NCBI GenBank assembly: GCA_031406155.1
Contig: JANOGW010000049.1
Span: 582 to 64,581, forward strand
Direction: 5' to 3'
DNA from: Pseudorhodobacter sp.
GTDB taxonomy: Bacteria > Pseudomonadota > Alphaproteobacteria > Rhodobacterales > Rhodobacteraceae
Length of the DNA: 64,000 bases
Shown here: positions 2,480 through 36,963 of the stretch, one piece after another
Layout: every line of letters starts with the position of its first letter
Numbering within the stretch: position 1 is the first letter of the stretch
Translations under genes and position numbers: made by a program
Notes under the pieces: generated by a model
Database searches by the model: none
The model's input: the letters and a program-made list of their open reading frames with translations, nothing else
What the model was told of the DNA's origin: nothing

Positions 2480-2517
2480 CCCCTGCCGGACGCAGACAAC
2501 GACAAGGAAACGCGTGA

Positions 2518-3321
2518 ATGGAACGACTGCAAGCGGCGATCGAGAAGGCACGGACCCGGCGCCAGGATACCCGGACGCAAGGATCGGCACCCCGGCCGGA
2601 GGCTCCGGCAACAGGGGTCGAGGCAGCTTGGGCAAGCCTCGCGGCCTTAGAAATCCACAGCAGCAAATTGCGCAAGAACCGTCTCGTTGCCTTCGAGAGC
2701 GGCCCGGACGCCGCCCCCTATGACATGCTGCGCACGCGGATGCTGCAGCAGGCCCGGAAAAACAACTGGCGCCGGGTTGCGATTGTCTCGCCCCATGCAG
2801 GTTGTGGCAAGACCACGACGGCGGCCAATCTGGTGTTCAGCTTCAGCCGGCAAAAAGATCTGCGCTGCATCATTCTTGATCTTGATCTGCGCCGGATCGG
2901 CCTTGGCAAGGCGCTTGATCAGAAACGCACCTACAGCATGGCCGATGTGCTCGAACGGCGCGTCAGCTTTGCCGACCACGGGTTGCGCTATGGCACCAAT
3001 GTTGCGGTCGGGCTGAACAGCACGACGGCAAGCAGTCCGTCCGAGCTGTTGCAAAGCCAGCAGACCCGCGATGTTCTGGCCGAGATTGAAGCCGCCTATC
3101 AGCCAGACCTCATGATCTTCGACATGCCCCCCCTGATGAGCAGTGACGATAACTACGGTTTTCTGAAGAATGTCGATTGCGCGCTGATCCTCGCCGAGGC
3201 CGACACCACCACGATAGAACAGGTGGATGCAGCGGAACGCCAGGTTGCCGACCTGACCAATGTCCTAGGCGTTGTTCTGAACAAATGCCGCTATAATGAA
3301 GGGGCTTACGGGTATGAATAA
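2518..3321 (+). CDS. BY-kinase-like P-loop ATPase (EpsG/CpsD-type tyrosine autokinase partner of the co-polymerase)
   Basis: Walker A SPHAGCGKTTTAANL, Walker A' ILDLDLRR, Walker B LMIFDMPP, and a Tyr-containing C-terminal tail RYNEGAYGYE. RBS-like AAGGAAA lies upstream. Confidence 0.75.
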   Translation: MERLQAAIEKARTRRQDTRTQGSAPRPEAPATGVEAAWASLAALEIHSSKLRKNRLVAFESGPDAAPYDMLRTRMLQQARKNNWRRVAIVSPHAGCGKTTTAANLVFSFSRQKDLRCIILDLDLRRIGLGKALDQKRTYSMADVLERRVSFADHGLRYGTNVAVGLNSTTASSPSELLQSQQTRDVLAEIEAAYQPDLMIFDMPPLMSSDDNYGFLKNVDCALILAEADTTTIEQVDAAERQVADLTNVLGVVLNKCRYNEGAYGYE

Positions 3322-3364
3322 ACACTGCCGCGCCCCATCCCGACCGCACTGAAGGGGGCTGGCC

Positions 3365-4240
3365 ATGTCCGGCACAGACCTGCCCGAGGCGGCGGTCATC
3401 ATTCCGCATTATAATGATGTCATCCGGCTGGAGCGCTGCCTGAAAGCCCTGACGGCGGGTGCTCTGCAGGGGGTCGATATTCTTGTTGTCGATAATGGCT
3501 CGACACAAAGCCTGACCGGGCTGCAGGCGGCCTTTCCCATGGTGCGCGTCCTGACCGAGCCGGAAAAGGGCGCGGCCGCTGCGCGCAACCGCGGTGTGCG
3601 TGAGACGGCGGCCCCGATCCTGATTTTCATCGATTCCGATTGCCTGCCGGCACCCGATTGGCTTGATGTCGCCCGCGCCGTGGCCCCGAAGGCCGATCTG
3701 ATCGGCGGGCGCGTCGATGTGTTTGACGAAACCCCGCCACCCCGTTCAGGGGCCGAGGCGTTCGAGACGGTCTTTGCCTTCAATTTTCGCAATTATATCG
3801 AGGTGCAGGGCTTTACCGGGGCCGGTAATCTGGTCACCCGACGTGATGTGTTTGACGCTGTCGGCGGTTTTGTGAACGGCGTGTCCGAAGATCGCGACTG
3901 GAGCATGCGCGCGGTCGCCAAGGGCTACCGGCTGATCTACGAGGACGGCCTTGTCGTCAGCCATCCGTCGCGGTCGGACTGGCCGGCCTTGCGCCATAAG
4001 TGGCATCGCATGACCCGCGAATTATGCGCCTCGAATGGCACCAGCCCGCGGGCCAGGCTGCGCTGGGGGCTGCGGGCGCTGGCGATGCCGGTCAGCGCCA
4101 TTGCCCATCTGCCCAAAGTGCTGTTCAGCAGCAAGTTGAACGGCATGCCCGAGCGGGTGCGCGCCGTGGCAACCCTGATCCGGCTCAGGCTGTTGCGCAT
4201 GGTATGGATGCTGCGTCAGGCCGCGGGTCTGACGATCTGA
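3365..4240 (+). CDS. Family 2 glycosyltransferase
   Basis: AAVIIPHYND...VVDNGS...ARNRGV...IFIDSDC (DxD) is a typical GT-A/GT2 motif order. Confidence 0.8.
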   Translation: MSGTDLPEAAVIIPHYNDVIRLERCLKALTAGALQGVDILVVDNGSTQSLTGLQAAFPMVRVLTEPEKGAAAARNRGVRETAAPILIFIDSDCLPAPDWLDVARAVAPKADLIGGRVDVFDETPPPRSGAEAFETVFAFNFRNYIEVQGFTGAGNLVTRRDVFDAVGGFVNGVSEDRDWSMRAVAKGYRLIYEDGLVVSHPSRSDWPALRHKWHRMTRELCASNGTSPRARLRWGLRALAMPVSAIAHLPKVLFSSKLNGMPERVRAVATLIRLRLLRMVWMLRQAAGLTI

Positions 4241-4279: not shown

Positions 4280-4873
4280 TTACGGGCGCGGGCGCAGAAG
4301 TCGCCAGCTGGCGGTGATGATCAAAACCGGGCAAAGCACCTCCAACGTCGTGGTCAGACCATGCAGAAAAATATCTGCAGTCCCTTGATCCGGAACGAAA
4401 ATATGCAGAAGGTGTCCGGCGCGGATCAAAACGAAACCGGCAAGTGCTGCCAGGCCCAAAAGCGGCAGCAGGTTCTGGCGGACGGTGCCGCGCAGGATCC
4501 AGAACATTGCCGCGCACGCCAGCGCTGCCACAACGATCAGGCCAAAAACGAAGTCGCGTTGCACGATGCGGCGGTTTTCGTACCAGCCCTGTTGCTGAGC
4601 AAGGCAGCGGCCAAGGGCGGTCAGCAGCGATTGCAGATCAAGTTGCTTGTTAACGGCCAAAGCCGCCATCAACAGGGCAATCAGGCCCCAGAACACCTGC
4701 GTCTGCCGACGATGCGGGGAGGAGAAAGTCACTCGCCGCAGCACAATCACTGCCGTTGCGAAGGCCAGCGCATAGGCGGCAAAAACCGCCCATCCCGTTA
4801 TGTTCGGGTCCCCTATGACCAGCTGCCAGCGGTCGGATACACAGGCGGAAAAACGATCATGGGAAAAGGCCAT
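4280..4873 (-). CDS. Hypothetical polytopic membrane protein
   Basis: 197-aa ORF with about five hydrophobic helices. It fills the gap between flanking genes. No recognisable catalytic motif. Confidence 0.5.
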   Translation of the reverse strand: MAFSHDRFSACVSDRWQLVIGDPNITGWAVFAAYALAFATAVIVLRRVTFSSPHRRQTQVFWGLIALLMAALAVNKQLDLQSLLTALGRCLAQQQGWYENRRIVQRDFVFGLIVVAALACAAMFWILRGTVRQNLLPLLGLAALAGFVLIRAGHLLHIFVPDQGTADIFLHGLTTTLEVLCPVLIITASWRLLRPRP

Positions 4874-5052
4874 TGGGGGTCTATTCTGGGTCTAATTGTG
4901 CCGGATTGCTGCCCTCATCCGGGCGTCTGGATCGGTTCGGTTTTTTGTTTTATCGCGTATAGCCGCAACGGGCTGGTAATATCAAAGCTTTCCATGGCAG
5001 GAACGCCACGGGTTTTCAGGATGTGGTCTGATCAAGGGTAAACGGGGACAAG

Positions 5053-6294
5053 ATGGCATTGGATGCAGATCGCAAGGCGCAGCAGACCCCCGCTCTGGCG
5101 CGGGTGGAACGGGGTAATATGTGCACTGGTTGTGGCGGCTGTGCGCTGGTAGCCCCTGATGCCGTGCGGATGGAGATGCGTGCCCCCGGCTATCTGCGCC
5201 CGGCGCAAATCGGGGTGCTGACACCAGCCGAGGACGCCCGCATCGCCCGCATCTGCCCCGGTCTCGGGCAGACCGTGCAGGCTGAAGGGCGGACCGATGA
5301 TGTGCTTTGGGGGCCCTATGTCAGCATGCACACCGGATATGCCACCGATGCAGCCTTGCGGCATACCGCGTCCTCTGGTGGCGGGCTGTCGGCGGTGCTG
5401 GTGCATCTGCTGCAAAGCGGTCAGGTCGACGCCGTGATCCAGACCGGTGCCGCCCCCGATGTGGCCGTGGCCAATGTGGCGGTGCTGTCAGACACGGCTG
5501 ACGGTGTGCTGGCGGCCGCCGGATCGCGCTATGCGCCGTCCTCGCCCTTGGCGGGATTGCAGCCGCATCTGGACAGTGATCGGCGCTTTGCCTTTGTCGG
5601 CAAGCCTTGTGATGTTGCCGCGCTGCGCGCGCTTGCCCTGGAAGATCCCCGCGTCGATGCACGAATTCCGGTGATGCTGTCGTTCTTTTGCGCGGGCATC
5701 CCGTCGCAGACCGGTGCCGAGGCGGTATTGGCAGCATTGGGCACCGATCCGGCCCATACGGCGGCGTTTCGCTATCGCGGCAATGGCTGGCCGGGGCAGG
5801 CGACGGCGACCCTGCAAGATGGCAGCACCCGCTCGATGAGCTATAATGACAGTTGGGGCAAGATCCTGTCGCGCCATGTGCAGCACCGCTGCAAGATCTG
5901 CGCCGATGGCACCGGCACGGCCGCCGATCTGGTCTGCGCCGATGCCTGGGTCAGTGATGCGCGCGGCTATCCGGTGTTTGAAGAACAAGATGGCATCAGT
6001 CTGATCGTGGCCCGCAATGCCAAGGGGGCCGATCTTCTGGCGCAGGCCAAAGCCGCGGGGCATCTGGTGACAGAAGGCTTCGATGTGTCCCGGCTGACCG
6101 CGATCCAGCCGGGACAGGTCGGGCGCAGGCGCGCGCTTCTGGCGCGGCTTGCCGGGCTTTGGCTGCTGGGAAGACCGGTTCCACGCTACCGCGGGCTGCA
6201 TCTGCGCAGCGCGGGGGCGCAAAACTCTCTGGCTCGCAATCTGAAGAACTTTCTTGGCATGGTGCGGCGCGGGCTGACGGGGCGGCTTGGCTGA
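5053..6294 (+). CDS. Coenzyme F420 hydrogenase/dehydrogenase beta-subunit-like (FrhB family) Fe-S flavoprotein
   Basis: CTGCGGCALVAP cysteine cluster, FVGKPCDVAALR motif and CKICADGTG. This family commonly accompanies polysaccharide pyruvyl transferases. Confidence 0.7.
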   Translation: MALDADRKAQQTPALARVERGNMCTGCGGCALVAPDAVRMEMRAPGYLRPAQIGVLTPAEDARIARICPGLGQTVQAEGRTDDVLWGPYVSMHTGYATDAALRHTASSGGGLSAVLVHLLQSGQVDAVIQTGAAPDVAVANVAVLSDTADGVLAAAGSRYAPSSPLAGLQPHLDSDRRFAFVGKPCDVAALRALALEDPRVDARIPVMLSFFCAGIPSQTGAEAVLAALGTDPAHTAAFRYRGNGWPGQATATLQDGSTRSMSYNDSWGKILSRHVQHRCKICADGTGTAADLVCADAWVSDARGYPVFEEQDGISLIVARNAKGADLLAQAKAAGHLVTEGFDVSRLTAIQPGQVGRRRALLARLAGLWLLGRPVPRYRGLHLRSAGAQNSLARNLKNFLGMVRRGLTGRLG

Positions 6295-6478: not shown

Positions 6479-9400
6479 TTGGTTGCCTTTGCGATGCTTA
6501 GAATATTGCCTCTGTTTCAAGATGTTACCCGCGCGTTTCAGGGGGCTGTAAAGAATCACGCGCCCGCCGTTGCGGTGGTGCAGGGATCCGTTCAGATCAG
6601 TTACGCCGATCTGGACCGGCTGTCGGATGTGCTGGCGGACCGCCTGATCAAGGCAGGTGTGGCCTCTGGCAGTTTGGTCGGGCTGGCGGCAACGCAGGAC
6701 CCCGGCACCATCATCAGCATTCTGGCCATCCTGAAGGCGGGGGCAGGCTATGTGCCGCTGCCCGGCTATTACCCTGAGGCGCGGCTGCGCGTGATCGCCC
6801 AGGATGCCGGGCTTGCGCTGATCCTAGGCTCGGTGCCTGCCTTGGTGGAAATGACCATCCCCCAGACCTCGTTTGACTGGCAGTCCTGCACGGAAACCAC
6901 CAGCCCCAGCTTGCCGACGCTGGATGGCGAGGCGGTGGCCTATGTGATGTACACCTCCGGCTCTACCGGCGTGCCCAAGGGCGTCGTCGTGCCGCACCGC
7001 GCCATTCTGCGGCTGGTGCAGGGCCAGAATTTCATGGCGCTGGGGCCGGATGAGCGGATATTGCAGAACTCAGCCATCGCCTTTGATGCCGCCACGCTGG
7101 AGATTTGGGGTGCGCTGCTGAACGGTGGCACCTTGGTCATGCCAGAAGAGACCTCGGGCTCGCTCAGCGCGCTTGGCGAGGTGATCAGGGATCAGCGCAT
7201 CACCTCGATGTGGCTGACAGCAGGGCTGTTTCATGCCATGGCCGACACCCGGCCCGGCGATTTTGCCCCCCTGCGCCAGTTGCTGACCGGGGGCGATGTG
7301 GTGTCGCCTGCCTGCGTTGCAAAGGTGATGGCGGCTTGCCCCGGCCTGACGGTGATCAACGGCTATGGCCCGACCGAGAACACTACCTTCACCTGCTGCC
7401 ATACCATTACCCGCGCCGAGGCGGAACTGGGCATGTCCTTGCCCATCGGCCGCCCTATCAGCGGCACCGATGTGTTCGTGCTGGATGCAAACCTTGCCCC
7501 CGTGCCCGCAGGCGAGCCGGGGGAGTTGTTTGCTGCAGGCGAGGGTCTGGCACTTGGCTATCTGGGCCGGGCTGATCTTACAGCCGAGAAATTTATCGCA
7601 GCCCCGTGGGACGCTGATGTGACGCTGTACCGTACTGGCGATCTGGTGCGGCAAGACGCAAAGGGCGTAGTGCACTATCTAGGCCGGATCGATACGCAGG
7701 TGAAAATTCGCGGCTTCCGGATTGAGCTTGGTGAAGTTGAGGCGGCACTGGAGGCTACCGGCGGCATCAGCCAGGCCGTGGTTGTGGCGCGCGCTGGTGC
7801 CGATCATGCCGACAAAATGCTGGTCGCCTATTGTGTGGCGGGGGACGCACTTGATGAAGGCACCTTGCGGGCCAGCCTTGGCGCACGTCTGCCCGATTAT
7901 GCCGTGCCATCGCGGTTTGTGACGCTGCCCGCGCTGCCGTTGAACAGCAATGGCAAAGTTGATCGGCGCGCGCTGGAGGCACTGGCTTTGCCAAAAGCTG
8001 CCAAACCGGCAAAGCCCGCCACCAGCACGCACAGCCTAGAAGAAATGATTGCAGGCCAGTTGGCGACAGCCCTTGGCATCGATGAAAGTGATCTCGACCG
8101 CAGCGCCAATTTCTTTGATCTTGGCGCCTCGTCATTGCATGTGGCCCGGGTGCATGACGGGCTGCAAACAGCGCTGGACCGGCGCTTTCCGATCTCGGAT
8201 TTCTTTCTGCATTCGACCATCGCTGCCATGGCCACTCACTTGGGCAAACCCGCCAAGGCGGCGGGGCCTGTCATCCTTGCGCCAAAGAAAGATCGCTCTG
8301 ACACCGGACTGATCGCCATCATCGGGTTGGCGGGCAAGTTTCCCGGCGCGCGCTCGGCTGAGGAATTCTGGGACGGCCTGGTGGCGGGCCGCGAGATGAT
8401 TTCGCAGTTCACCCCGGAAGAGCTGGATATCGATCTGTCCAAGGGCGACGCGGGGGCTGGGTTTGTCAATGCGCGCGGCGTGATGCCGGATGCTGACATG
8501 TTCGATGCCAGGCATTTCAACATCCCGCCCCGCGAGGCGGAACGGATGGACCCGCAGCACCGGATTTTGTTGGAAGTGGCGCAGACGGCGCTCGACAGTG
8601 CCGGCCATGATCCCGCACAGTTTGCGGGCAAGATCGGTATCTATGCAGGCTCCAGCCAGAACTCGTATCTGCTGAACAATCTGCTGTCTGCGCCGGGTGC
8701 CTCGCGGGCTTACGCGGCCAGCTATCCGCTGGACGATTTCGCGACGCTGTTTGGCAATGACAAGGATTTCATCGCCACCCGCATCGCCTACAAGCTGAAC
8801 CTGCGCGGGCCTGCGGCGACAGTGCTGTGCGCCTGTTCGACGTCACTGGTGGCGGTGGCGCAAGGCTGCGAAAGCCTGTTGTCTGGCACCTCGGATATGG
8901 TGCTGGCGGGCGGTGTGTCTGTCACCTTCCCGTCAAAGCGCAATTACAAATACATGCCCGACGGCATGGCTTCGGCCGATGGTCATTGCCGGACGTTCGA
9001 TGCTGATGCGACCGGCACGGTGTTTGGCGATGGCGCGGGGCTGGTGGTGCTGCGCCGTCTGGAAGATGCGCTGGCGGATGGCGACACTGTCATCGCGGTG
9101 ATCCGGGGTTATTCGATCAACAACGACGGCTCGGAAAAGGCGGGTTATGCAGCGCCCTCGATCAAGGCGCAGGCGGCGGTCATTCAGGCGGCGCATCTGG
9201 CAGCCGGGGTGAATGCACGTGAGATCGGCTATATCGAGGCGCATGGCACCGCGACGCCGCTGGGTGACCCGATCGAATTTGCGGCATTGCATGCGGCGTT
9301 TTCGGCCAGCACCGATGCGCGCGGGTTTTGTGCCCTGGGGTCTGCCAAGACCAATGTCGGGCACTTGGATATTGCCGCCGGCATCACTGGGCTGATCAAG

Positions 9401-12400
9401 GCGGCACTGACGCTGCAACATGGCGTCATTCCGCCCCTGCTGCATTACAAGGCGCCGAACCCCCGGATGGATTTCGCCAATTCGGCGTTTTACCCGGTGG
9501 CAAAGCTGACCGATTGGCCGCGCGGTGGTGTGCCCCGTTTGGCGGGTGTGTCGGCCTTTGGCGTTGGTGGCACCAATATTCACATGGTGCTGCAAGAAGC
9601 GCCACAAGTGGCTGTGGTGGAAAGTGCCGCGCCACATGGCCCGCAGGTTTACCCGGTATCAGCATCGTCGCCCGAAGCGTTGAAGGCAGCAGTTGCAGAG
9701 CTTGGTGCCTGGGCTGCCGCTAACCCCAAGGCTGACGCTGGCGCTGTGCGTGCGACATTGCGCCGGGGGAGGCATGCTTACAACGAGCGCGCTGTTCTGG
9801 TGGCCGATGGTATGGCTGGTCTAGCCCAAGCCGCACAGGGCTTTGCGGGCAAATCCACCACAGCGGGACGGCGCGATGCAGTGGCCTTTCTGTTTCCGGG
9901 GCAGGGCGCGCAGCATGTCGGCATGGCAAAGGCGCTGTTCGATGCCGAACCAGTATTCCGCGAGGCATTAAGCCTTTGCACCACGCTGCTGAAGCCCGCA
10001 CTTGGGCTTGATTTGCTTGATGTTATCCATGCGCCGGACAACCTGCGCGAGCAGATGACAGCGCGGCTGAAAGATACGTCATTGGCGCAGCCCGCGATCT
10101 TCTCGATCGGCTATGCTTTGGCAAAGCAATGGGATCATTGGGGTATCCGTCCGGACGTGATGGTCGGCCATTCGATCGGCGAATTTGCCGCCGCAACCAT
10201 CGCGGGTGTGATTGATTTGCCCGATGCGCTTGGCCTGATCGCCCTGCGTGGTCGGCTGATGGCCGACTTGCCTGATGGGGTGATGGTATCGGTGCGTGCA
10301 TCCGAACAGGAACTTCAACCCTATCTGGGTGCGGGGCTTGATCTGGCAGCGGTGAATGGCGCAAAAGCCTGTGTTCTGGCCGGGTCGGAAGAGGCGGCAG
10401 CGGCGCTGTTGCCAACGCTGGAGGCGGCAGGGTTTGTAACCTCGCGCCTGCACACCAGTCATGCGTTTCATTCGTACATGATGGAACCGGCCGTTGCCCC
10501 GTTCCGTGCGGCCGTGGCCAAGATCAAGCTTCGCGCCCCGAAAATCCCGATCCTGTCGACGGTAATTGGTGACTGGCTGACCGAACAGGAAGCCACCGAC
10601 CCCGACTATTGGGCGGGCCATATGCGCCGCCCCGTGCGGTTCTATGATGCGATGCAGACGCTGTGGGCCGAGGGGCGGCATATCTTCCTTGAAACCGGCC
10701 CCGGTCGCACGATGGCAACGCTGGCCGGGCAAAACCCGGATCGCCGCCGCGCACAGCCTGCACTGGCGTCGTTGCCACATGCCCAAGCCGAAAACGCCGA
10801 TGCGCATCTGTCGATGCTGGAGGCGTTTGGTGGACTTTGGGCCAGTGGCTACCCGGTGGATTGGTCACGGCTTGAAGGCGACGGGCCAGAGCCGCACCGT
10901 GCCGCGGGCCTTCCGACCACTCCGTTCCAGCGCAAGCGGTTCTGGGTGGAACCCACGGATGTGGGAACCGCACCTGCCGCCGCCATTGCCCTTGAAGCCG
11001 CCCCTGCGGCAGATCAGATCACCGCCCCTGTACCGCAAATTTCCGCCGCCGACGCGCTGCGCGACATGCTGTCCGATCTGTCGGGCGTCGAGCCTGCCGA
11101 GATGGATGGCGGCGCCAGCTTTCTGGAACTGGGCTTTGATTCGCTGCTGCTGACGCAAGCCACGCGCGAGTTGTCTGAACGTTTTGGTGTGACGGTTACT
11201 CTGCGCCAGTTGATCGACGGCTTCCCCACCATTGATACGCTTGCCGCCCATATCGACGCGCATGGCAATCTGGCGGGCCGTGCCCCCGCCGACCGCACGC
11301 CGTTGGCCGAAATGACCCGGATCGAGGGCCGGGAGGAGGAGGCCGAAGCCACGCCATCTTCGGCCCCGATGACCAGGATCAGCCGCGAGACGGAAGAGCT
11401 GACACCCGCACAGCGCGGCCATATCGACGCATTGGTGGCGCGCTACACTGCGAAAACCGCGAAATCCAAGGCGTTGACGGCACAGTACCGGGGTGTGCAT
11501 GCCGATCCGCGCACCGCGTCCGGCTTCAACCGGCTGTGGAAGGAAATCGTCTATCAGATTGTCACCGTCAAATCGAAAGGCTCGCGGCTGATCGATGTCG
11601 ATGGCAATGAATACATCGATATCCTGAACGGTTTTGGCCCCGGTTTTCTGGGCCATGCACCTGAACAGGTGGTCAGCGCCTTGCATAGCCAACTGGATGC
11701 AGGCTTCGAGGTTGGCCCGCAAAGTCTGGCTGCGATGGAAGCTGCTGCCCTGTTCTGCGAAGTGACCGGCAACGACCGCGCCAGTTTCGTGTGCACCGGG
11801 TCGGAAGCGGTTTATGCCGCGATGCGGCTGGCCCGCACCTGCACCGGGCGTGACCGGATCGTGATGTTCGCGCGGGATTATCACGGCAATTTCGACGAAG
11901 TTCTAGTCCGCGGCATCGACGGCAAGGATGGCCCGCGCTCTCTGCCGATGGCCCCCGGCATTCCGCGCGATTCCGTGAAAAACGTGGTGGTGCTGCCCTA
12001 TGGTTCACCGCAGGCGCTGGATTACATTCGCCGCAACGCAGATACCATCGCCGCCGTGATCGTGGAACCGGTGCAAAGCCGCCGCCCCGAGTTCCGCCCC
12101 GCCGAGTTTATCCGCGAGGTGCGGCGGATCACTGAAAATGCAGGCTCGGTGTTCATCTTTGACGAAGTCGTCACCGGTTTCCGCTTTGGCCCGCGCGGCG
12201 CGCAGGGTTATTACGGTGTGGACGCTGACCTCGTGACTTACGGCAAGGTGGTGGGCGGTGGCATGCCGGTGGGCGTGGTGTCGGGCAAGGCCCGCTTCAT
12301 GGACACTTTTGATGGTGGTCCTTGGCAATATGGTGATGACAGCTTCCCGCAAGCGCCCGTAACCTTCTTTGCCGGTACCTTCGTGCGCCATCCGCTGGCG

Positions 12401-15400
12401 ATGGCCGCCCTGAAGGCGATGCTGACGTTCTTTAAAACCCAGCCGGACTTTTTCTGGAAGACCGTCAATGCCAAGGGCGACCGTCTGGCAGGCACGGTGG
12501 ACCGCTGGTTTGCCGATAATGACATGCCGTTCCAGATGCCGAACTGCGGCTCGCTGATGTATCTGCGCATCGGCGAGGATCAGAAATATGGCGGCCTGCT
12601 AGGGGCTGGCTTGCGGGATCGCGGCGTGTTCATGCTGGAGGGGTTCCCCAGCTACATGACGGCGGCGCATGACGACGAAGACATCGATCATGTAATCGAC
12701 GCGGTGAAGGATACCGCGCTTGAAATGCGCGCCGCAGGCCTGCTGGTCGGGCGCGGGGCGGTTGCTTACGATGGCCCGCATCTGCACCTGGCCCCGCCGC
12801 GCCTGACCCTGCCGGGCGGCGAGGCCGCGATTGCCGCCGCAATGCGCGCACCGCTTGGCACCCTGAGCGTGCCCACCACCGAGGCACAGCGTGAAATCTG
12901 GGCCGCGATGATCGTCACCCCCGATCTGGCGCCTGCCTATAATGAAAGCGTCACGCTGAAGCTGCACGGCGTGATCGACAGGGATCTGCTCAGGGCTGCG
13001 GCGCAGACCGTGTTCCGGCGGCATGATGCGCTCAGATCGACCTTCTCGGAGGACGGGATGGAGATGCACATCCAGCCCGACACGGCCATTGATGCAAGCC
13101 TGATCGATCTGTCGGACCTGACCGCCGAAGATCAGGCCGGCACGCTTGCCAGGCTGCTCGCGCAAGAGGTGGAAACCCCGTTCGACATGGTCTCGGGACC
13201 CTTCGTGCGCGCACATCTGGTGGCGTTTGGGCCAACACATCATCACCTGATCATCACCGCCCACCACATCGTCTGTGACGGCTGGTCGATCGACGTGGTG
13301 ATGCGCGACATCGGCAAGGTCTATGCCGCCGGGCTGGAAGGGCGCACGCCCCTGTTGCCGCCCGCGCAAAGCATCGTGGACTATGCGCGGGTCGAGGCGG
13401 AATGGAGCCGCTCTGCGGAGGCAACCGCCGCGCGCGAGTACTGGCTGGGGCAATTCGCAAACCAGCCACCCGTGCTGGATCTGCCAACCGATCATCCGCG
13501 CCCTCCGGTGAAAACCGTGCGTGGCGCACGGGCCGACAGGGTGATCCCGGCAGCACTGGCCGACCAGCTGCGCGCGCTTGGGCGAACGCAGGGCTCAACC
13601 TTCGTCAATCTGCTGCTGGCGGCCTACAAGATTTATGTTGCACGGCAAGCGCAGGTGTCGGACATCGTTATCGGTCTGCCCGCCTCAGGGCAAGCGGCGC
13701 GCGGCATGCCGGGCGTGGTCGGGCACTGCGTCAACCTGCTGCCCATTCGCACGCAAATAGATTGGGACAAGGGCTTTGGCAGCTACCTGACAGTCGTCCG
13801 CCGGGCGATGCTGGATGCGCTGGACCACCAGACTTATACCTACGGCGAGCTGATCCGGTCCTTGCGCATCGCGCGCGATCCGTCCCGCGTCATGCTGGTG
13901 CCGGTGATCTTCAACATCGACAACGGCATTGATCTGTCCACCATGTCCTTTGGTCCGGTGACGACGGACTTCGTGACCAACCCGCGCGCTTATGAACATT
14001 TCGAATTGTATCTGAACGTCACCGATGCACCGGGTGATGTGCACACCGAATGGAGCTATAACGCCGATCTGTTCGATGCGGCCACGATCGAGGCGCATAT
14101 CGACCGCTTCGTGCGACTGCTGGGCGAATTGATCGAAGACCCAGGCCAGCCGCTTGGGGAAATTTCGCTTTTATCGCGGGACGAGCGGCAAAAGCTGCTG
14201 GTCGATTGGCAAGGCAAGCGCGTTGATACCCCGCAAGAGGCAACACTGGCCACACTGTTCGCCGATCGCGTTGCCAAAAACCCCGATGCCATCGCCCTGA
14301 TCGAGGGCGAGACGGGCCTGCGCTATAGCCAGCTGGATGCGATGGTGGGCGATCTGGCAGCACAGTTGCAGGATCGTGGCGTGGGCCGCGGCGATATCGT
14401 CGGTATCTGCATGGAACGGTCGATGCGGATGGTGGCAGCATTGCTGGCCACGATGCGGCTTGGGGCTGCCTATATGCCGCTTGATCCGTCAAACCCGGCA
14501 GACCGCCTGCGCCATATCCTGGCCGACAGCAGCACACGGTTTGTGCTGACCACTGAAGATCTGGCCAACCGCCATGGTTTTGCTGACCCGATTATCCCAA
14601 GTGCCACCGGCAGCCATCCGGCCCCCGTCACGGCTGCCGTGCCGGCAGAGATTGCCTATATCGCCTATACCTCGGGCTCGACCGGCACACCCAAGGGCGT
14701 GATGGGCACGCACCGGGCTACGATCAACCGCTTTGCCTGGATGTGGCGGGAATTTCCCTTCTCGCCGGCTGATGTGATGTGCCAGAAAACTGCCCTGTCC
14801 TTCGTGGATTCGGTCTGGGAGATTTTTGGCCCGCTGCTGGCGGGGGTGCCGCAGGTTATCATCCCGAACGACAAGCTGCGCGATCCTGCGGCGTTTCTGG
14901 CGCTTTTGGGCAAGCATCGGGTCACGCGGCTTCTGGTGGTGCCATCGCTGCTGAAATCCATCCTTGATGTGGGCATTGATCTGGGGGCTGTGGCCCCGTC
15001 GCTGCAGCTGCTTTTCACCTCGGGTGAACGGATACCGGCAACGCTTGCACGGCAGATGCTGGCGGCGGCCCCGCAGGTAACGCTGGTCAATCTTTATGGC
15101 TCGTCCGAAGTGGCGGCGGACGTTACTTGCGAAGTGGTGCACAATGTCAGCACCGAAGAAGTGCCGATCGGGCGCGCAATAGATAATGCCCGGCTTTATG
15201 TGCTGGATGCGGCCCGCCACCTGATGTCACCCGGCGAGGCGGGAGAGCTGTATGTCGGCGGTGATGTGCTGGCGGCGGGCTATCTGCACCGCCCCGATCT
15301 GACGGCCGAGCGGTTCCTGCCCGATCCGTTTGCCGACACCCCCGGGGCGCGGATGTTTGCCACCGGTGACCGGGTGCGCCATCTTGCCGACGGGCGGCTG

Positions 15401-16843
15401 ATCTATCTTGGCCGCGCCGACCATCAGGTCAAGATCCGGGGCGCGCGGGTTGAACTGGGCGAGGTCGAGGCAGCTCTGGCAGCGATGCCAAGCGTTGCCG
15501 AAGCCGTCGCCGTCGCCCGCCCCGATGCGGATGGTGATCTGACATTGCTGGCCTTTGTCACCCTGCGGCCGGGCAGCACTGCTGACCCGCTGGCCCTGCG
15601 TGCGGCACTGGCGCAAAGCCTTCCCGATTACATGGTGCCCTCGCGCGTTCTGGTGCTTGACCAGATGCCGCTGAACCCGAACGGCAAGACTGATCGCATG
15701 GCGCTAAGCCTGCGCCCGGCGGAAGGCCAAGGTGACAGCGCCCGCACCAATTGGCCAGTGACCGCGACCGAGCGGGACTTGCGCGATATCTGGGCGCGGC
15801 TGCTGGATCAGCCCGAGATCGGGATGGAGGACGACTTTTTCGAACTGGGTGGCCATTCGCTGCTGGCGGTCAAGCTGTTCACCCAGCTGCGCCGCAGCTT
15901 TGGCGTGGATTTGCCGATCTCGACCCTGTTTGCCCATCCCACGATCCGCACGCTGGCACGCAAACTCGGCACCAGCAGCGAAACTCCGCCAAATACCAGC
16001 TATTCCGGCACGCCCGAAGACAGCCCCTGGGATACCACGACGGTGATCCACCCCGGGCCCGCGCTTGCAAGACCCCCCCTGTTCATCGTCGGCGGTGTTG
16101 GCGGCAACGTGAACAACCTGATCAGGCTCGGCCGCCTGCTGGGGGCTTACCGCCCAGTCATCGGCCTGCAGACGCGCGGCATCCTAGGCCACCGGATGCA
16201 TGAGACGATCGAGGCCACGGCCGCGGATCATCTGACCAATATCCGCCGCCATCAACCGCAGGGGCCCTATCTGCTGGCCGGTTATTCGGGGGGCGCGTTC
16301 ACTGCGTTCGAGATGGCGCGACAATTGCGGGCCGCGGGCGAAGAGGTGGGCTTTCTTGGCCTCCTTGATACCTTCGCGCCGAAATTCGTCTTCCAGAAAC
16401 ACGGCTCCAAACTGGACCGGGTTCAGTATATGACCAAGCTGGTCCTGCGGCATGGGCCGGGGCCGCTTTGGACCAATGCCATGGCCTGGCTGCACAACAA
16501 GACCACCGCAGGGGCGGTGCTGCAAGCCGGTGTGCCAACCCCGTCCGAGAAATACCGCTATAGCCATCTGGCCCGGCAATGGTGGAAGATATCAACGATT
16601 TATGACCCCGCCCCCTATGCCGGCGATGCGTGGCTGTTCCTGACAGAATCTGAAAAAGATGGCTTTTACGCAACCCAGCTGCGCAAGAGCGATCCGAATT
16701 ACGGCTGGCCAGGGTTCATACGCGGCCAATTGCGGGTCAGCCGGCATACGTCGGATCACCTGAGCATGCTGACCGGAACCGCCGTCCAGGACCTTGCCAA
16801 CATGATCGAGGCCGAGATCCTGCACGCGAAACAAGGGACGTAA
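6479..16843 (+). CDS. Hybrid NRPS-PKS megasynthase: A-T-KS-AT-ACP-AMT-C-A-T-TE
   Basis: 3454-aa ORF; domains are read from core motifs. NRPS start: A (YTSGSTGVPKG ~6950, NGYGPTE), T (FFDLGASSL ~8110). PKS part: KS (CSTSLVAV, HGTATPLGD, GHLDIAAG; ~8310-9600), AT (GQGAQ, GHSIGE, HAFH; ~9880-10800), ACP (LGFDSL ~11130). Then a class-III aminotransferase (~11400-12745). NRPS end: C (HHIVCDG 13262-13282), A (YTSGSTGTPKG ~14670), T (GGHSL ~15850), TE (GYSGG ~16285). Start is TTG 6479 or ATG 6494. Confidence 0.95.
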   Translation: MVAFAMLRILPLFQDVTRAFQGAVKNHAPAVAVVQGSVQISYADLDRLSDVLADRLIKAGVASGSLVGLAATQDPGTIISILAILKAGAGYVPLPGYYPEARLRVIAQDAGLALILGSVPALVEMTIPQTSFDWQSCTETTSPSLPTLDGEAVAYVMYTSGSTGVPKGVVVPHRAILRLVQGQNFMALGPDERILQNSAIAFDAATLEIWGALLNGGTLVMPEETSGSLSALGEVIRDQRITSMWLTAGLFHAMADTRPGDFAPLRQLLTGGDVVSPACVAKVMAACPGLTVINGYGPTENTTFTCCHTITRAEAELGMSLPIGRPISGTDVFVLDANLAPVPAGEPGELFAAGEGLALGYLGRADLTAEKFIAAPWDADVTLYRTGDLVRQDAKGVVHYLGRIDTQVKIRGFRIELGEVEAALEATGGISQAVVVARAGADHADKMLVAYCVAGDALDEGTLRASLGARLPDYAVPSRFVTLPALPLNSNGKVDRRALEALALPKAAKPAKPATSTHSLEEMIAGQLATALGIDESDLDRSANFFDLGASSLHVARVHDGLQTALDRRFPISDFFLHSTIAAMATHLGKPAKAAGPVILAPKKDRSDTGLIAIIGLAGKFPGARSAEEFWDGLVAGREMISQFTPEELDIDLSKGDAGAGFVNARGVMPDADMFDARHFNIPPREAERMDPQHRILLEVAQTALDSAGHDPAQFAGKIGIYAGSSQNSYLLNNLLSAPGASRAYAASYPLDDFATLFGNDKDFIATRIAYKLNLRGPAATVLCACSTSLVAVAQGCESLLSGTSDMVLAGGVSVTFPSKRNYKYMPDGMASADGHCRTFDADATGTVFGDGAGLVVLRRLEDALADGDTVIAVIRGYSINNDGSEKAGYAAPSIKAQAAVIQAAHLAAGVNAREIGYIEAHGTATPLGDPIEFAALHAAFSASTDARGFCALGSAKTNVGHLDIAAGITGLIKAALTLQHGVIPPLLHYKAPNPRMDFANSAFYPVAKLTDWPRGGVPRLAGVSAFGVGGTNIHMVLQEAPQVAVVESAAPHGPQVYPVSASSPEALKAAVAELGAWAAANPKADAGAVRATLRRGRHAYNERAVLVADGMAGLAQAAQGFAGKSTTAGRRDAVAFLFPGQGAQHVGMAKALFDAEPVFREALSLCTTLLKPALGLDLLDVIHAPDNLREQMTARLKDTSLAQPAIFSIGYALAKQWDHWGIRPDVMVGHSIGEFAAATIAGVIDLPDALGLIALRGRLMADLPDGVMVSVRASEQELQPYLGAGLDLAAVNGAKACVLAGSEEAAAALLPTLEAAGFVTSRLHTSHAFHSYMMEPAVAPFRAAVAKIKLRAPKIPILSTVIGDWLTEQEATDPDYWAGHMRRPVRFYDAMQTLWAEGRHIFLETGPGRTMATLAGQNPDRRRAQPALASLPHAQAENADAHLSMLEAFGGLWASGYPVDWSRLEGDGPEPHRAAGLPTTPFQRKRFWVEPTDVGTAPAAAIALEAAPAADQITAPVPQISAADALRDMLSDLSGVEPAEMDGGASFLELGFDSLLLTQATRELSERFGVTVTLRQLIDGFPTIDTLAAHIDAHGNLAGRAPADRTPLAEMTRIEGREEEAEATPSSAPMTRISRETEELTPAQRGHIDALVARYTAKTAKSKALTAQYRGVHADPRTASGFNRLWKEIVYQIVTVKSKGSRLIDVDGNEYIDILNGFGPGFLGHAPEQVVSALHSQLDAGFEVGPQSLAAMEAAALFCEVTGNDRASFVCTGSEAVYAAMRLARTCTGRDRIVMFARDYHGNFDEVLVRGIDGKDGPRSLPMAPGIPRDSVKNVVVLPYGSPQALDYIRRNADTIAAVIVEPVQSRRPEFRPAEFIREVRRITENAGSVFIFDEVVTGFRFGPRGAQGYYGVDADLVTYGKVVGGGMPVGVVSGKARFMDTFDGGPWQYGDDSFPQAPVTFFAGTFVRHPLAMAALKAMLTFFKTQPDFFWKTVNAKGDRLAGTVDRWFADNDMPFQMPNCGSLMYLRIGEDQKYGGLLGAGLRDRGVFMLEGFPSYMTAAHDDEDIDHVIDAVKDTALEMRAAGLLVGRGAVAYDGPHLHLAPPRLTLPGGEAAIAAAMRAPLGTLSVPTTEAQREIWAAMIVTPDLAPAYNESVTLKLHGVIDRDLLRAAAQTVFRRHDALRSTFSEDGMEMHIQPDTAIDASLIDLSDLTAEDQAGTLARLLAQEVETPFDMVSGPFVRAHLVAFGPTHHHLIITAHHIVCDGWSIDVVMRDIGKVYAAGLEGRTPLLPPAQSIVDYARVEAEWSRSAEATAAREYWLGQFANQPPVLDLPTDHPRPPVKTVRGARADRVIPAALADQLRALGRTQGSTFVNLLLAAYKIYVARQAQVSDIVIGLPASGQAARGMPGVVGHCVNLLPIRTQIDWDKGFGSYLTVVRRAMLDALDHQTYTYGELIRSLRIARDPSRVMLVPVIFNIDNGIDLSTMSFGPVTTDFVTNPRAYEHFELYLNVTDAPGDVHTEWSYNADLFDAATIEAHIDRFVRLLGELIEDPGQPLGEISLLSRDERQKLLVDWQGKRVDTPQEATLATLFADRVAKNPDAIALIEGETGLRYSQLDAMVGDLAAQLQDRGVGRGDIVGICMERSMRMVAALLATMRLGAAYMPLDPSNPADRLRHILADSSTRFVLTTEDLANRHGFADPIIPSATGSHPAPVTAAVPAEIAYIAYTSGSTGTPKGVMGTHRATINRFAWMWREFPFSPADVMCQKTALSFVDSVWEIFGPLLAGVPQVIIPNDKLRDPAAFLALLGKHRVTRLLVVPSLLKSILDVGIDLGAVAPSLQLLFTSGERIPATLARQMLAAAPQVTLVNLYGSSEVAADVTCEVVHNVSTEEVPIGRAIDNARLYVLDAARHLMSPGEAGELYVGGDVLAAGYLHRPDLTAERFLPDPFADTPGARMFATGDRVRHLADGRLIYLGRADHQVKIRGARVELGEVEAALAAMPSVAEAVAVARPDADGDLTLLAFVTLRPGSTADPLALRAALAQSLPDYMVPSRVLVLDQMPLNPNGKTDRMALSLRPAEGQGDSARTNWPVTATERDLRDIWARLLDQPEIGMEDDFFELGGHSLLAVKLFTQLRRSFGVDLPISTLFAHPTIRTLARKLGTSSETPPNTSYSGTPEDSPWDTTTVIHPGPALARPPLFIVGGVGGNVNNLIRLGRLLGAYRPVIGLQTRGILGHRMHETIEATAADHLTNIRRHQPQGPYLLAGYSGGAFTAFEMARQLRAAGEEVGFLGLLDTFAPKFVFQKHGSKLDRVQYMTKLVLRHGPGPLWTNAMAWLHNKTTAGAVLQAGVPTPSEKYRYSHLARQWWKISTIYDPAPYAGDAWLFLTESEKDGFYATQLRKSDPNYGWPGFIRGQLRVSRHTSDHLSMLTGTAVQDLANMIEAEILHAKQGT
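11400..12745 (+). other. Integrated PLP-dependent class-III aminotransferase (AMT) domain inside the megasynthase (approximate borders)
   Basis: GSEAVYAAMRLAR, IFDEVVTGFRFG and TYGKVVGGG (putative PLP lysine codon at 12245-12247). This is the same layout as glutamate-1-semialdehyde-aminomutase-like AMT domains of MycA/ItuA-type synthetases. Confidence 0.8.
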
Positions 16844-16847
16844 CACG

Positions 16848-17657
16848 ATGACGGCGATGGGCCCCAGCCGTTTGCCGATCCGTGCCGCAGACATTGGCGT
16901 GGCGCAGTGCCGTCTGGGGGATGACCGCGACATCACCCTGAGTGCTGCCTGGGCGCTGTTGTCGGCGGATGAGATCACACGCGCGCACCGCTTTCATTTT
17001 GACCGTGATCGAACTCGTTATGTGCGGGGGCGGGGGTTTTTACGCCAGATGCTGGGCCAGGTCTGCGGACAGAACCCGGCAAGTTTGATTTTTGGCACGG
17101 GCGCGCGGGGCAAACCGTTTTTGGCAGGCAGCAATCTGGGCAGCGATCTGGCCTTCAACCTGTCGCACAGCCGCGATCTGGCCGTTCTGGCCATCTCGCA
17201 AACCGGGCCTTTGGGGATTGATGTCGAATTTATCGACCGCAGCGCAGATCTGGCCGGGCTGACCCAAAGCTGCATGACCCCCGCCGAGGCCGCGGTTCTG
17301 GCAGCCCTGCCCGCAACCGAACGGCCTGCACGGTTCTTTGCGTTCTGGACGGCAAAAGAGGCCCGCATGAAACTGACCGGTGAGGGGATGTCCCTGGCCC
17401 CGCAGCAAATTGCGCTGGATTTGCGGGACGGTGTTCCAGTAGGCTATCTGCACCCCGGGACACCGGACGTGCAGGCCGTTTTTCTTGATCTGGGACATCC
17501 CCTTGCCCAGTGCTGTCTGGCGTTGGCACGGGGTCCCCAACCCGTTATTATCCCTCTTATTGCCACGACCCCCGTTATTATCATCACCAGTCCCCCTGTT
17601 ACGGAGTATGCGTATTTTGGCTCATTCGAGAGACACCATCAAACTTCTGGCCGGTAA
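16848..17657 (+). CDS. Sfp-type 4'-phosphopantetheinyl transferase
   Basis: GKPFL, FNLSHSRDLAVLA, GIDVEFI and FWTAKEARMKLTGEG motifs. It starts 5 nt after the megasynthase stop. The last ~40 codons look like read-through into an A/T-richer spacer. Confidence 0.85.
   Translation: MTAMGPSRLPIRAADIGVAQCRLGDDRDITLSAAWALLSADEITRAHRFHFDRDRTRYVRGRGFLRQMLGQVCGQNPASLIFGTGARGKPFLAGSNLGSDLAFNLSHSRDLAVLAISQTGPLGIDVEFIDRSADLAGLTQSCMTPAEAAVLAALPATERPARFFAFWTAKEARMKLTGEGMSLAPQQIALDLRDGVPVGYLHPGTPDVQAVFLDLGHPLAQCCLALARGPQPVIIPLIATTPVIIITSPPVTEYAYFGSFERHHQTSGR
17541..17582. repeat. Two perfect 12-bp direct repeats CCCGTTATTATC spaced 30 bp apart
   Basis: Copies at 17541-17552 and 17571-17582, with a degenerate third copy (CCCTGTTACGG) at ~17594. 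They lie just upstream of the GGAG/ATG (17608) of the methyltransferase gene. Confidence 0.9.
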
Positions 17658-18453
17658 CCTGTTGGAGGTTCTGGCCCCCTGGGTTCGGCGCGATCTGGAT
17701 GCAGATCGTCATTCTGGCCGCTTCATAAAGCTGAAGCGCTGGATCCTTTATGCCCGCACCACCCGGGCAAAGGCACGCGGCGATGCCTCTGCGTTGCAAA
17801 AAAGCCTGTTCCAGTTCTGGCGCGCCGACACCGCAGATCCCTATTTTGAGCGATACCAGGATCGCTATGACAAATGGTTTCTGGGGCCGCATCATGAAAT
17901 CGTCGATCAATTGGCAAAGCTTACCCGCAGTGGCGCCTACAACCACCTGGTCGAAGTTGGTTGCGGTTCCGGGCGAGTGCTGGCGCATTGCGCCGAGGCC
18001 ATGCCGCAGATGTCTGATTTCATCGGGGTCGACATCAACCCCGTCATTATCGCCCATGACAGGACCGCTTTCGCGCCGAACCCGCGGCTGCAATTCCTGG
18101 CTGCCGATGCGTCGGTCTGGCTGCAGAAAAACGCCAGACCCGGCACCATTTTGCTGACCTATGGCGGGGTGATGGAGTATTTCTCGGCCGAGACCCTGAG
18201 CGCGATGTTTTGTGGGCTGGCACAACATCACCCGGCCGCAGTGGCCCTGGTGGAACCGGTCGACCCCGACCACGATCTGGCAAATGATCCGGCATCGCAT
18301 GTCTTCGGACAGGAAAACTCGTTCTCGCACAATCATGAAAAATTGCTGCAAAATGCCGGCTACAGGACGCTGTTTCGCAAGGATCTGCGCCTTGGTGGGG
18401 CGTCATGGGTGATGCTTGTGGCCACGGCCGGACGGCAAAATTCCGGGCATTGA
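17608..18453 (+). CDS. Class I SAM-dependent methyltransferase
   Basis: Start taken at ATG 17608, preceded by GGAG (17603-17606). Motif I is VEVGCGSGRVL and post-I is FIGVDINP. It overlaps the PPTase tail by 50 nt. Confidence 0.75.
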   Translation: MRILAHSRDTIKLLAGNLLEVLAPWVRRDLDADRHSGRFIKLKRWILYARTTRAKARGDASALQKSLFQFWRADTADPYFERYQDRYDKWFLGPHHEIVDQLAKLTRSGAYNHLVEVGCGSGRVLAHCAEAMPQMSDFIGVDINPVIIAHDRTAFAPNPRLQFLAADASVWLQKNARPGTILLTYGGVMEYFSAETLSAMFCGLAQHHPAAVALVEPVDPDHDLANDPASHVFGQENSFSHNHEKLLQNAGYRTLFRKDLRLGGASWVMLVATAGRQNSGH

Positions 18454-18528: not shown

Positions 18529-19341
18529 ATGATGTCTGCCTTACGCAACTATGAGGTTTGGTGGTTTTTGGGCCTGATTATCGTGGCCAATGCCGTGTTT
18601 GTGTCGGGGATAGATTTTGGTATTCTGCCGGACAGACTTTATTCCTATGGGCGCTTTGCCTTGCTGGCGGGGGTGTTGGGCGGCATCGTATTGCTTGCCC
18701 GTGGCTGGGAGGGGATTGCAGATCTGTTGCGCCCGATGCTGCAATGGCAACGCTCGGTGGCATGGTATCTGTTCGCCTTTCTATGGAACCCGGTGATTTG
18801 CTTGCTAGTCCTGATGGCACTTCATACCCTGCACCCCAGCTCCATGTCGGAATTCAAGCCTAACTTTGCCATCGCATTACGGCCCGACATCATCAGAACC
18901 GTGCTCATCGGATCTTTCATCGGTGAAATCGTCTGGATCAGCTATGCAATCCGGCGTCTGTCGATCAGCTTCACCCCCTATGTTTCAGCCCTGATCGTCG
19001 GTGTTGTCTGGACGGCATGGTGGGTGCCGATGGTGTTTTACAATATCGGCATCGTGCCTGACCTGCCGATAGCAGCGCTTTTGTTCAACCAGATCGGCAT
19101 CGCTGCAATGTGCACCTTTGTTTACATGCACACCAGAAGCGGATTGCTGGTGTTGTGCCTGCAGGTAACGTTCAACTTTACGATCCTGGTGTTGCCCGTC
19201 ACCCCGGCGGTGGGCGGTTTCACCACCTATTGGACTTTTGCCGTCACCTATTTCATCGCAGCGCTGTTGCTTTTTGTGGTTTTCGGGCCAAAACCGCTGT
19301 TCACCGCACCGGTGCGCAGTGGCAGCCCGACACAGGCCTGA
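18529..19341 (+). CDS. Polytopic membrane protein, possibly a degenerate CPBP/Abi-family (CAAX-protease-like) protein
   Basis: 270 aa with ~7 hydrophobic helices. FVYMH (FxxxH-like) is followed by LQVTFNF where CPBP proteins have HxxxN, and only a single E appears in the GEIVW segment. The gene is visibly A/T-richer than its neighbours. Confidence 0.5.
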   Translation: MMSALRNYEVWWFLGLIIVANAVFVSGIDFGILPDRLYSYGRFALLAGVLGGIVLLARGWEGIADLLRPMLQWQRSVAWYLFAFLWNPVICLLVLMALHTLHPSSMSEFKPNFAIALRPDIIRTVLIGSFIGEIVWISYAIRRLSISFTPYVSALIVGVVWTAWWVPMVFYNIGIVPDLPIAALLFNQIGIAAMCTFVYMHTRSGLLVLCLQVTFNFTILVLPVTPAVGGFTTYWTFAVTYFIAALLLFVVFGPKPLFTAPVRSGSPTQA

Positions 19342-19979: not shown

Positions 19980-20050
19980 CCTTGGTGCGTTTCTAAAACC
20001 TACTCCTTTTACCTTGGTTCAGTAGGCTCTATTGGTCTTCCTTGGTGCGT
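19980..20050. promoter_or_regulatory. Candidate operator/promoter repeats: CCTTGGTGCGT x2 plus a CCTTGGT half copy
   Basis: Perfect 11-mers at 19980-19990 and 20040-20050, 60 bp apart, with CCTTGGT at 20012-20018. The last copy ends 24 nt before ATG 20074. Confidence 0.4.
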
Positions 20051-20073
20051 CCTCTCAGTCCAGAAGTGTTGCA

Positions 20074-36878: not shown

Positions 36879-36954
36879 TCCGCCCCGGTTCCCGCTGGAT
36901 ATCCCCCAAACAGCCCGAGATTCGTTTCGTGGTTTTAGTGACACCACGCTAGAG

Positions 36955-36963
36955 TTATCCACA
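36955..36963 (+). promoter_or_regulatory. Perfect consensus DnaA box TTATCCACA
   Basis: Read directly. It lies 23 bp from the first iteron, upstream of the initiator gene. Confidence 0.6.

Follow-up and report, generated by a model that had tools for sequence, protein, structure and literature searches.

What acyl unit would an assembly line build if its primer were an amino acid and its polyketide module ended in an aminotransferase? The question is raised by a 64,000-nucleotide stretch of DNA from Pseudorhodobacter sp. (assembly GCA_031406155.1, contig JANOGW010000049.1; we call this whole stretch the window). In it, a single plus-strand gene at 6479..16843 encodes a megasynthase that joins nonribosomal peptide synthetase (NRPS) and polyketide synthase (PKS) domains in the order A-T-KS-AT-ACP-AMT-C-A-T-TE, that is, adenylation, carrier, ketosynthase, acyltransferase, acyl carrier, aminotransferase, condensation, adenylation, carrier and thioesterase. 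The answer we favor is a vicinal diamine: a valine-like primer would be extended with malonate and aminated at the resulting keto group to give a 3,4-diamino acyl chain. We predict this intermediate because of the features of the first A domain, the KS, the AT, the carriers and the AMT, taken together with the published role of AMT domains.

Catalytic domains and predicted route

The megasynthase frame runs uninterrupted for 3,454 codons on the plus strand, giving a 3,454-residue protein; its true start may be the ATG at 6494. It is not a chance reading frame, because 25 full-length colinear homologues retain every catalytic residue; this set comprises the reading frames that matched the whole protein in a single high-scoring segment pair, and was aligned with MAFFT. 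Pfam matched exactly the domain order given in a preliminary description of this DNA, with two AMP-binding matches, AMP-binding_C, and three PP-binding matches. No unassigned stretch exceeds about 100 residues.

The front half consists of a first adenylation domain (A1, 6536..7978; residues ~20-500), a carrier (T1, 8021..8218; Ser552 in GASSL), the KS (8312..9448; ketoacyl-synt at residues 612-864 and its C-terminal half at 873-990), the AT (9887..10783; Acyl_transf_1 at 1137-1435) and the ACP (11051..11248, with approximate boundaries; Ser1555 in GFDSL). The AMT, a class-III aminotransferase of the MycA type dependent on pyridoxal 5'-phosphate (PLP), lies directly after the ACP of the KS-AT-ACP unit and ahead of the C domain (11453..12745; Aminotran_3 at 1693-2054). 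The back half is made up of the C domain (12869..14200; Condensation at 2131-2574, with HHIVCDG at residue 2262), a second adenylation domain (A2, 14258..15688; residues 2594-3070, with AMP-binding at 2594-2936), a second carrier (T2, 15776..15961; Ser3127 in GGHSL) and the TE (16076..16843; Thioesterase at 3200-3322, with GYSGG at 3268 and Ser3270).

The primer domain is a genuine amino-acid adenylation domain. NCBIfam found two TIGR01733 (amino-acid-adenylation) stretches in the protein and DltA-like matches at residues 23-499. When the specificity code of A1 was extracted again through the core motifs, in GrsA-PheA numbering, it read D235 A236 L239 W278 L299 G301 G322 T330 F331 K517, or DALWLGGTFK, which reproduces and extends by one position the nine-letter string reported before. 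In NRPS adenylation domains Asp235 binds the alpha-amino group and Lys517 the carboxylate; as both are present, A1 belongs with the domains for amino acids and is no ligase of fatty or aryl acids, in agreement with the amino-acid primer proposed earlier. The canonical valine code of Stachelhaus et al. 1999 is said to be DAFWIGGTFK. The A1 code equals it at 8 of 10 positions, differing by the conservative changes F239L and I299L, and the variant DAFWLGGTFK found in homologues equals it at 9 of 10. One or the other of these two Val-type codes, DALWLGGTFK or DAFWLGGTFK, occurs in 20 of the 25 colinear homologues. A1 is thus predicted to activate a valine-like substrate, either valine itself or a closely similar small branched amino acid. 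A search of literature text for the specificity-code strings returned no match. The top PDB match of A1 is the LgrA valine module, which we considered as support for valine and dropped; the LgrA A1 code, DGLYIGGIMK, is quite different.

The elongating domains have what a condensing module needs. The KS carries its Cys-His-His set (Cys786 in CACSTS, and the histidines of AHGTAT and NVGHLD), and the AT has GHSIGE beginning at residue 1230 (Ser1232) and HAFH at 1328-1331, the malonyl-type signature already named in the preliminary description. The KS residues and the malonyl-type AT motifs (GHSxGE, HAFH) are invariant in the 25 homologues.

Compared with all PDB sequences, AMT residues 1659-2089 matched best the excised AMT domain of the mycosubtilin synthase MycA (6KFM/6KFU; E 2.7e-111, 431 residues aligned), with glutamate-1-semialdehyde aminomutases (GSAM) far behind at ~1e-57. 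The lysine motif is conserved between the two (TYGKVVGGGMPVG in the window protein, TYGKIIGGGQPLG in MycA), and so are the FDEV/MDEI aspartate and the GSEA/GTEA loop. The codon previously assigned to the PLP lysine, 12245-12247, is AAG and encodes K1923, which lies in a TYGK motif that aligns with the TYGK of 6KFM. The GSAM family model (NCBIfam PRK00062) gave 254.9 bits on this domain, below its cut-off of 398. AMT domains convert a beta-ketothioester on an ACP to a beta-aminothioester (PMC3870968; PMC13291983). The amino donor of MycA is glutamine (PMC3870968), and zeamine, microcystin and chitinimine are proposed to follow the same amination logic (PMC13291983).

The code of A2 is VDWLFSLADK, in an unusual V235/D236 register that was confirmed by HMMER alignment to LgrA A2. 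A beta-alanine code, VDATVSIADK, has been published for a bleomycin-like domain of Alteromonas pAMDE1 (PMC3777966 Table 1). The two codes are equal at positions 235, 236, 301, 330, 331 and 517, and A2 has L for I at 322. Our best prediction for its substrate is a residue of the beta-alanine type, or at least a beta- or omega-amino acid.

Taken in order, these domains would form a self-contained three-carrier NRPS-PKS-NRPS line, with T1, ACP and T2 presumably converted to their holo forms by an adjacent 4'-phosphopantetheinyl transferase (PPTase). A1 would adenylate L-valine, or another small branched amino acid much like it, and load it onto T1. The AT would place malonyl on the ACP, and the KS would take up the valyl group and carry out a decarboxylative Claisen condensation to yield 4-amino-5-methyl-3-oxohexanoyl-S-ACP, an alpha-amino ketone. 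The MycA-type AMT, in its pyridoxamine 5'-phosphate form, would then transaminate C3 to produce 3,4-diamino-5-methylhexanoyl-S-ACP, probably with glutamine as donor, by analogy with MycA. The C domain would couple this diamino acyl chain to the beta-alanine-type residue loaded on T2 by A2, and the TE would release the pseudo-dipeptide, for which we calculate [M+H]+ 232.166 for the linear form, C10H21N3O3, and 214.155 for a lactam. We regard the complete route, from valine through the diamino acyl chain and beta-alanine to TE release, as reasonably probable; every chemical step in it is a prediction, the donor and the release mode included. Comparison of the C and TE domains with the PDB gave matches that did not discriminate subtype or mode of release.

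A widespread family with two kinds of loader

A scan with the AMT domain, covering one genome per species, returned 80 loci, headed by two Pseudorhodobacter metagenome-assembled genomes (MAGs) at 96% and 95%. The 25 colinear homologues include many Rhodobacterales, several Verrucomicrobiales, a Cellvibrionaceae MAG, Sneathiella and a Thiotrichales MAG. All 25 keep Cys786, the two KS histidines, GHSIGE, HAFH, the carrier serines, K1923, HHxxxDG and GYSGG. Their A2 codes vary, falling into a beta-Ala type (VDW.FSLADK, VDAVVSLADK), a Val type and a Gly type (DILQ-GMVWK). Varied A2 codes together with conserved catalytic residues are the pattern of a functional, diversifying family.

By these comparisons, the megasynthase gene with its A1-type loader is a member of a conserved and widespread orphan family. 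This amends one part of the preliminary description, which had called the diamino unit a rare building block: its sequence-level premises stand, but this type of module is no rarity among genomes. The description was also silent on the beta-alanine type of A2, on the tendency of the free gamma-amine to lactamize and on the polysaccharide setting of the gene. Architectures of the form A-CP-KS-AT-CP-PLP had been catalogued in silico, without products, in a 2013 survey.

At the DNA level, a search of plasmids returned only one weak relative, from Aliiroseovarius, at 73%. The closest plasmid record, that of Aliiroseovarius sp. M344, encodes a protein with 71% identity across the first 2,100 residues; the gene is followed by genes for a PPTase, a hypothetical protein and a methyltransferase, and lies inside a capsule or exopolysaccharide (EPS) locus. 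More distant relatives have the same front end at 38-48% identity. Among them, a Variovorax protein has a Val-type A-T-KS-AT-ACP-AMT (A1 code DALWIGGTF), and in a Loktanella relative, 38-42% identical to the window protein, the line is split over three genes as A-T, KS-AT-ACP-AMT-C-A-T and C-like plus TE-like. In both Loktanella salsilacus (plas1, L082) and Variovorax paradoxus (plasmid, L083) the front end stands beside a gene annotated 'methyltransferase, TIGR04325 family', a PPTase gene and polysaccharide export/tyrosine-autokinase genes. The last Loktanella protein, encoded separately after the assembly-line genes, has 944 residues, with the C-like part N-terminal and the TE-like part C-terminal.

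The family also differs at the primer end. In 27 Verrucomicrobial homologues, T-KS-AT-ACP-AMT-C-A-T-TE is kept behind ~580-830 N-terminal residues that have no Pfam match. NCBIfam identifies this N-terminus as FkbH (TIGR01686, E 6.6e-95 and 8.2e-93, above cut-off); examples are L037:4556-6292 and L074:4454-6271, with 25 further Verrucomicrobial loci. Loaders of the FkbH family place a glyceryl unit on a carrier, and the architecture FkbH-T-KS-AT-ACP-AMT-C-A-T-TE thus predicts a 3-amino-4,5-dihydroxy acyl unit.

This loader swap bears on the amination step. Between the AMT domains of A-primed and FkbH-primed lines only two alignment columns differ in a group-specific manner, both conservatively, so that the same reaction most likely takes place in both groups. 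A plain beta-transamination is thereby supported and a GSAM-like shift specific to amino ketones disfavored; most likely, the chemistry of the AMT would be the same whatever the gamma substituent.

Sequence similarity also links the two adenylation positions. In L001, L003, L014, L024, L025, L031, L032 and L034 the A2 code is the Val-type DALWLGGTFK, as in A1. The A2 domains of three truncated homologues (L012, L013 and L018) are 52-58% identical to the A1 of the window, which is roughly 32-41% identical to the A2 of most FkbH-type and other relatives. It would seem that in some homologues intragenic recombination has copied A1 into the A2 position.

Neighboring genes and plasmid setting

Three plus-strand genes follow the megasynthase gene. 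The first encodes a PPTase of the Sfp/HetI type (16848..17657), with homologues near most A-type loci; one is found within ~5 kb at 23 of 31 A-primed loci, where it is usually the next gene after the megasynthase gene. The second encodes a class I S-adenosylmethionine (SAM) methyltransferase (17485..18453), whose likely start is the ATG at 17608; as listed, the frame overlaps the PPTase gene by ~170 nt, and its first 41 codons look non-coding. The third encodes a polytopic membrane protein (18529..19341) with a weak CPBP/Rce1-like match (E 0.005). Homologues of the methyltransferase lie within ~5 kb of 17 of the 31 A-primed loci and none of the 27 FkbH-primed loci (Fisher 1.4e-6, not corrected for phylogeny); within Verrucomicrobia alone the counts are 3 of 7 and 0 of 27 (p 0.006). 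Membrane protein homologues follow the same division, at 13 of 31 and 0 of 27 loci. These distributions weakly suggest that both genes relate to the valine-derived amine. The methyltransferase, for which searches of family models and the PDB gave no informative match, may possibly N-methylate the gamma-amine and mask it against lactamization onto the thioester, and a function in immunity or in processing is conceivable for the CPBP-like protein.

RepA (PF10134, minus strand) and ParA/ParB (plus strand), encoded at 35808-39758, mark the window as plasmid DNA, probably from a Pseudorhodobacter-like member of the Rhodobacterales, and the megasynthase gene lies inside an exosortase-type EPS locus on this plasmid. 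The upstream part of that locus (69-4240) encodes an AAA ATPase, a GNVR chain-length protein, a tyrosine-kinase-like ATPase and a GT2 glycosyltransferase. The downstream part (46037-63875) encodes beta-helix and Wzy-like proteins, a hexapeptide acyltransferase, a GDSL hydrolase, a flippase and a GT4 glycosyltransferase; its minus strand also carries the genes for the exosortase, an EpsH-DUF3485 fusion (57747-59372), and for a large TPR protein (61749-63875). An ABC transporter, an HlyD-family adaptor and a TolC-like outer-membrane protein (41057-45740) make up a type I secretion set, whose cargo could be either the product of the assembly line or a protein associated with the EPS. Since genes of this family recurrently sit in polysaccharide loci, here one of the exosortase type, their role may lie in surface or biofilm biology more than in classical antibiosis. 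A broader and more speculative proposal, to which we give only slight credence, is that this family of small NRPS-PKS lines, often found in or near surface-polysaccharide loci, makes gamma-heteroatom beta-amino acids (in Rhodobacterales a vicinal diamine built on valine, in Verrucomicrobia an amino-diol built on a glyceryl unit) whose products are EPS decorations or regulators, possibly of the exosortase system, and not free antibiotics.

A second assembly line is encoded further downstream on the plus strand. Its first gene (20032-24507) specifies a formyltransferase-like N-terminus, ~240 residues without a family, an A domain into which a luciferase-like monooxygenase is inserted, and a T domain; the next (24549-33863) specifies KS-AT-KR-DH-ACP-C-A-T-TE, in which the ketoreductase (KR) stands ahead of the dehydratase (DH), an unusual order. 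Upstream of the megasynthase gene, 4361-5041 encodes a 226-residue protein without a family match that is conserved in two Pseudorhodobacter MAGs only. The directly adjacent gene at 5053-6294, F420-hydrogenase-beta/dehydrogenase-like, was rejected as a partner, as it is not conserved beside other homologues.

Competing explanations and known counterparts

Several observations weigh against the route from valine to a diamino acyl dipeptide. The searchable literature holds no product or intermediate for any member of the family. A free gamma-amino (beta-keto) thioester is prone to form a five-membered lactam or a tetramic acid, and an unmasked valine primer is unusual in view of that tendency; the candidate amine-masking methyltransferase is encoded near only 17 of the 31 A-primed loci. 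The A2 code departs from known beta-alanine codes at positions 239, 278 and 299, and another beta- or omega-amino acid is possible as its substrate. Finally, the valine assignment of A1, like its canonical reference code, depends on Stachelhaus-type tables, for which the literature text search on the code strings gave no match.

The reactivity of the gamma-amine is also the starting point for one competing account, in which the amine attacks the ACP thioester before condensation and releases 4-amino-5-isopropyl-pyrrolidin-2-one, or a tetramic acid if attack precedes amination, leaving C-A-T-TE with a different role or none. This reading draws on the established reactivity of gamma-amino thioesters, and no N-acylating C domain precedes A1. 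We nevertheless judge it improbable: the catalytic residues of C, A2, T2 and TE are kept in 25 of 25 homologues, and the variation of A2 codes is typical of functional diversification, which argues that the module is used. Even less probable, in our estimate, is that the AMT passes through the 3,4-diamine and removes the C4 amine, a net 1,2-amino shift that would give 3-amino-4-oxo-acyl-ACP with no external donor. The domain does have a class III fold like that of GSAM, its substrate would be an alpha-amino carbonyl compound as in GSAM, and the GSAM intermediate is itself a vicinal diamine. Yet the GSAM model scored under its cut-off, the closest characterized relative, the MycA AMT, is a true transaminase, and FkbH-primed AMTs, which have no amine to shift, show no more than the two conservative column differences.

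Other explanations accept the chemistry on the line and differ over what the product is for or how large it is. The acyl-dipeptide may be built for, or transferred to, a surface polysaccharide or glycoconjugate of the surrounding EPS locus, a view we consider unlikely. Its strength is genomic context. In the window, Wzz/GNVR, tyrosine-kinase-like ATPase and GT2 genes lie upstream, and exosortase EpsH+DUF3485, flippase, GT4, Wzy-like and acetyltransferase genes downstream; the homologues of Aliiroseovarius, Ruegeria and Tabrizicola are bordered by the same EPS genes; in the neighborhoods of 18 loci, genes for glycosyltransferases and sugar-nucleotide enzymes appear repeatedly; and the relatives in Loktanella and Variovorax are surrounded by genes for tyrosine autokinase, flippase, export and glycosyltransferase functions, the Loktanella line having in addition its separate protein, C-like in front and TE-like behind. 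However, such co-location may merely mirror variable plasmid or surface islands, no acceptor-specific transferase was identified, and the window enzyme terminates in an ordinary type I TE; we know of no precedent for an EPS decoration made by an NRPS. Alternatively, the megasynthase and the downstream pair (20032-24507 and 24549-33863) might together build one larger product. The pair is on the same strand, ~0.7 kb past the membrane-protein gene, and in L002, L003, L004, L014 and L016 it likewise comes after the megasynthase block, with the order unchanged. On the other hand, both lines are equipped with a loading module and a TE of their own, and the pair is missing from most homologous loci, the complete Aliiroseovarius plasmid among them, so we hold a joint product to be quite unlikely.

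We therefore retain the self-contained line from a valine-like primer to a diamino acyl dipeptide as our preferred reading. If it holds, this would be the first assembly-line route known to us to a beta,gamma-diamino acid of the 'amino-statine' type, and the diamino unit would arise from an aminotransferase sitting where statine pathways have a ketoreductase. Known domains are combined in a predictable way, yet a new building block would be expected. Vicinal diamines are transition-state-like, metal-binding motifs and useful building blocks, and the family offers natural variants of one chassis, in which the loader is for valine or a glyceryl unit and the second residue is beta-Ala, Val or Gly. 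Carriers in culture include Aliiroseovarius M344 and Z3, A. conchicola 2305UL8-7, Paramylibacter ulvae KCTC 32465, Ruegeria sp. HKCCA6707 and one Roseovarius strain; as several are cultured isolates, the prediction is directly testable.

No characterized counterpart appeared in the searchable literature on AMT-module architectures, on vicinal or gamma-diamino units with PKS, or on Roseobacter AMT clusters, but parts of the proposed logic have parallels. McyE and NdaF, of microcystin and nodularin biosynthesis, have KS-AT-ACP-AMT-C-A-T, in which the AMT at the PKS-to-NRPS junction makes the beta-amino acid Adda for the next C domain. This type of AMT role is cited in PMC13291983. Those modules take a long polyketide chain from an upstream PKS, whereas the window module would take an aminoacyl starter. 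In biotin synthesis, BioF condenses an amino acid to the alpha-amino ketone 7-keto-8-aminopelargonate (KAPA), which the class-III aminotransferase BioA converts to a vicinal diamine, 7,8-diaminopelargonate. The chemical logic is the one proposed here, but there is no relation of membership: BioF and BioA are free-standing enzymes acting on free acids outside any assembly line, with PLP-dependent BioF instead of a KS and SAM as the amino donor. Closer in architecture are the lines that make statine-type units (pepstatin, didemnin, tubuvaline), in which a T-bound amino acid and malonyl, joined on a cis KS-AT-ACP, become a gamma-amino-beta-functionalized acid. There a KR sets a beta-hydroxyl; in the window an AMT takes the place of the KR, and the amino analogue is predicted. 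We know of this analogue only as a synthetic isostere of the 'aminostatine' type.

Within the Rhodobacterales, a conserved Roseobacter cluster of NRPS, PKS, glycosyltransferase and PPTase genes has been reported, its product not known (Martens et al.; described in PMC4337385). Compared by description only, this four-gene cluster resembles the window in having PPTase and glycosyltransferase genes alongside, and differs in that its NRPS and PKS genes are separate and not fused in one reading frame with a TE. The FkbH-primed Verrucomicrobiales lines share the T-KS-AT-ACP-AMT-C-A-T-TE chassis, with AMT domains 55-69% identical to those of the A-primed Rhodobacterales group; they differ in their glyceryl-type loader, in the amino-diol predicted instead of a diamine, and in having no methyltransferase or CPBP-like neighbor. 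The pathway to coralinone-type pyrazinones (A-T-C-A-T-KS-AT-ACP-TE) was considered and set aside, its architecture being unrelated.

The nearest relatives in mechanism are MycA and ItuA, the first modules of the mycosubtilin and iturin synthetases (AL-ACP-KS-AT-ACP-AMT-C-A-T). They likewise have a KS-AT-ACP, an integrated class-III AMT homologous to that of the window protein down to the PLP lysine motif, and then C-A-T, and the expected reaction is alike, from beta-ketoacyl-ACP to beta-aminoacyl-ACP. Their primer is supplied by a fatty-acyl-AMP ligase; that of the window line would come from a true amino-acid A domain, and the fatty-acid primer is not a feature of it. The window line also stops after one NRPS module and a TE, unlike MycA and ItuA, and is predicted to give a small polar diamino pseudo-dipeptide and not a lipopeptide. 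We conclude that, judged by its domains, the window protein operates in the manner of MycA without being a lipo-initiation module of the MycA type.

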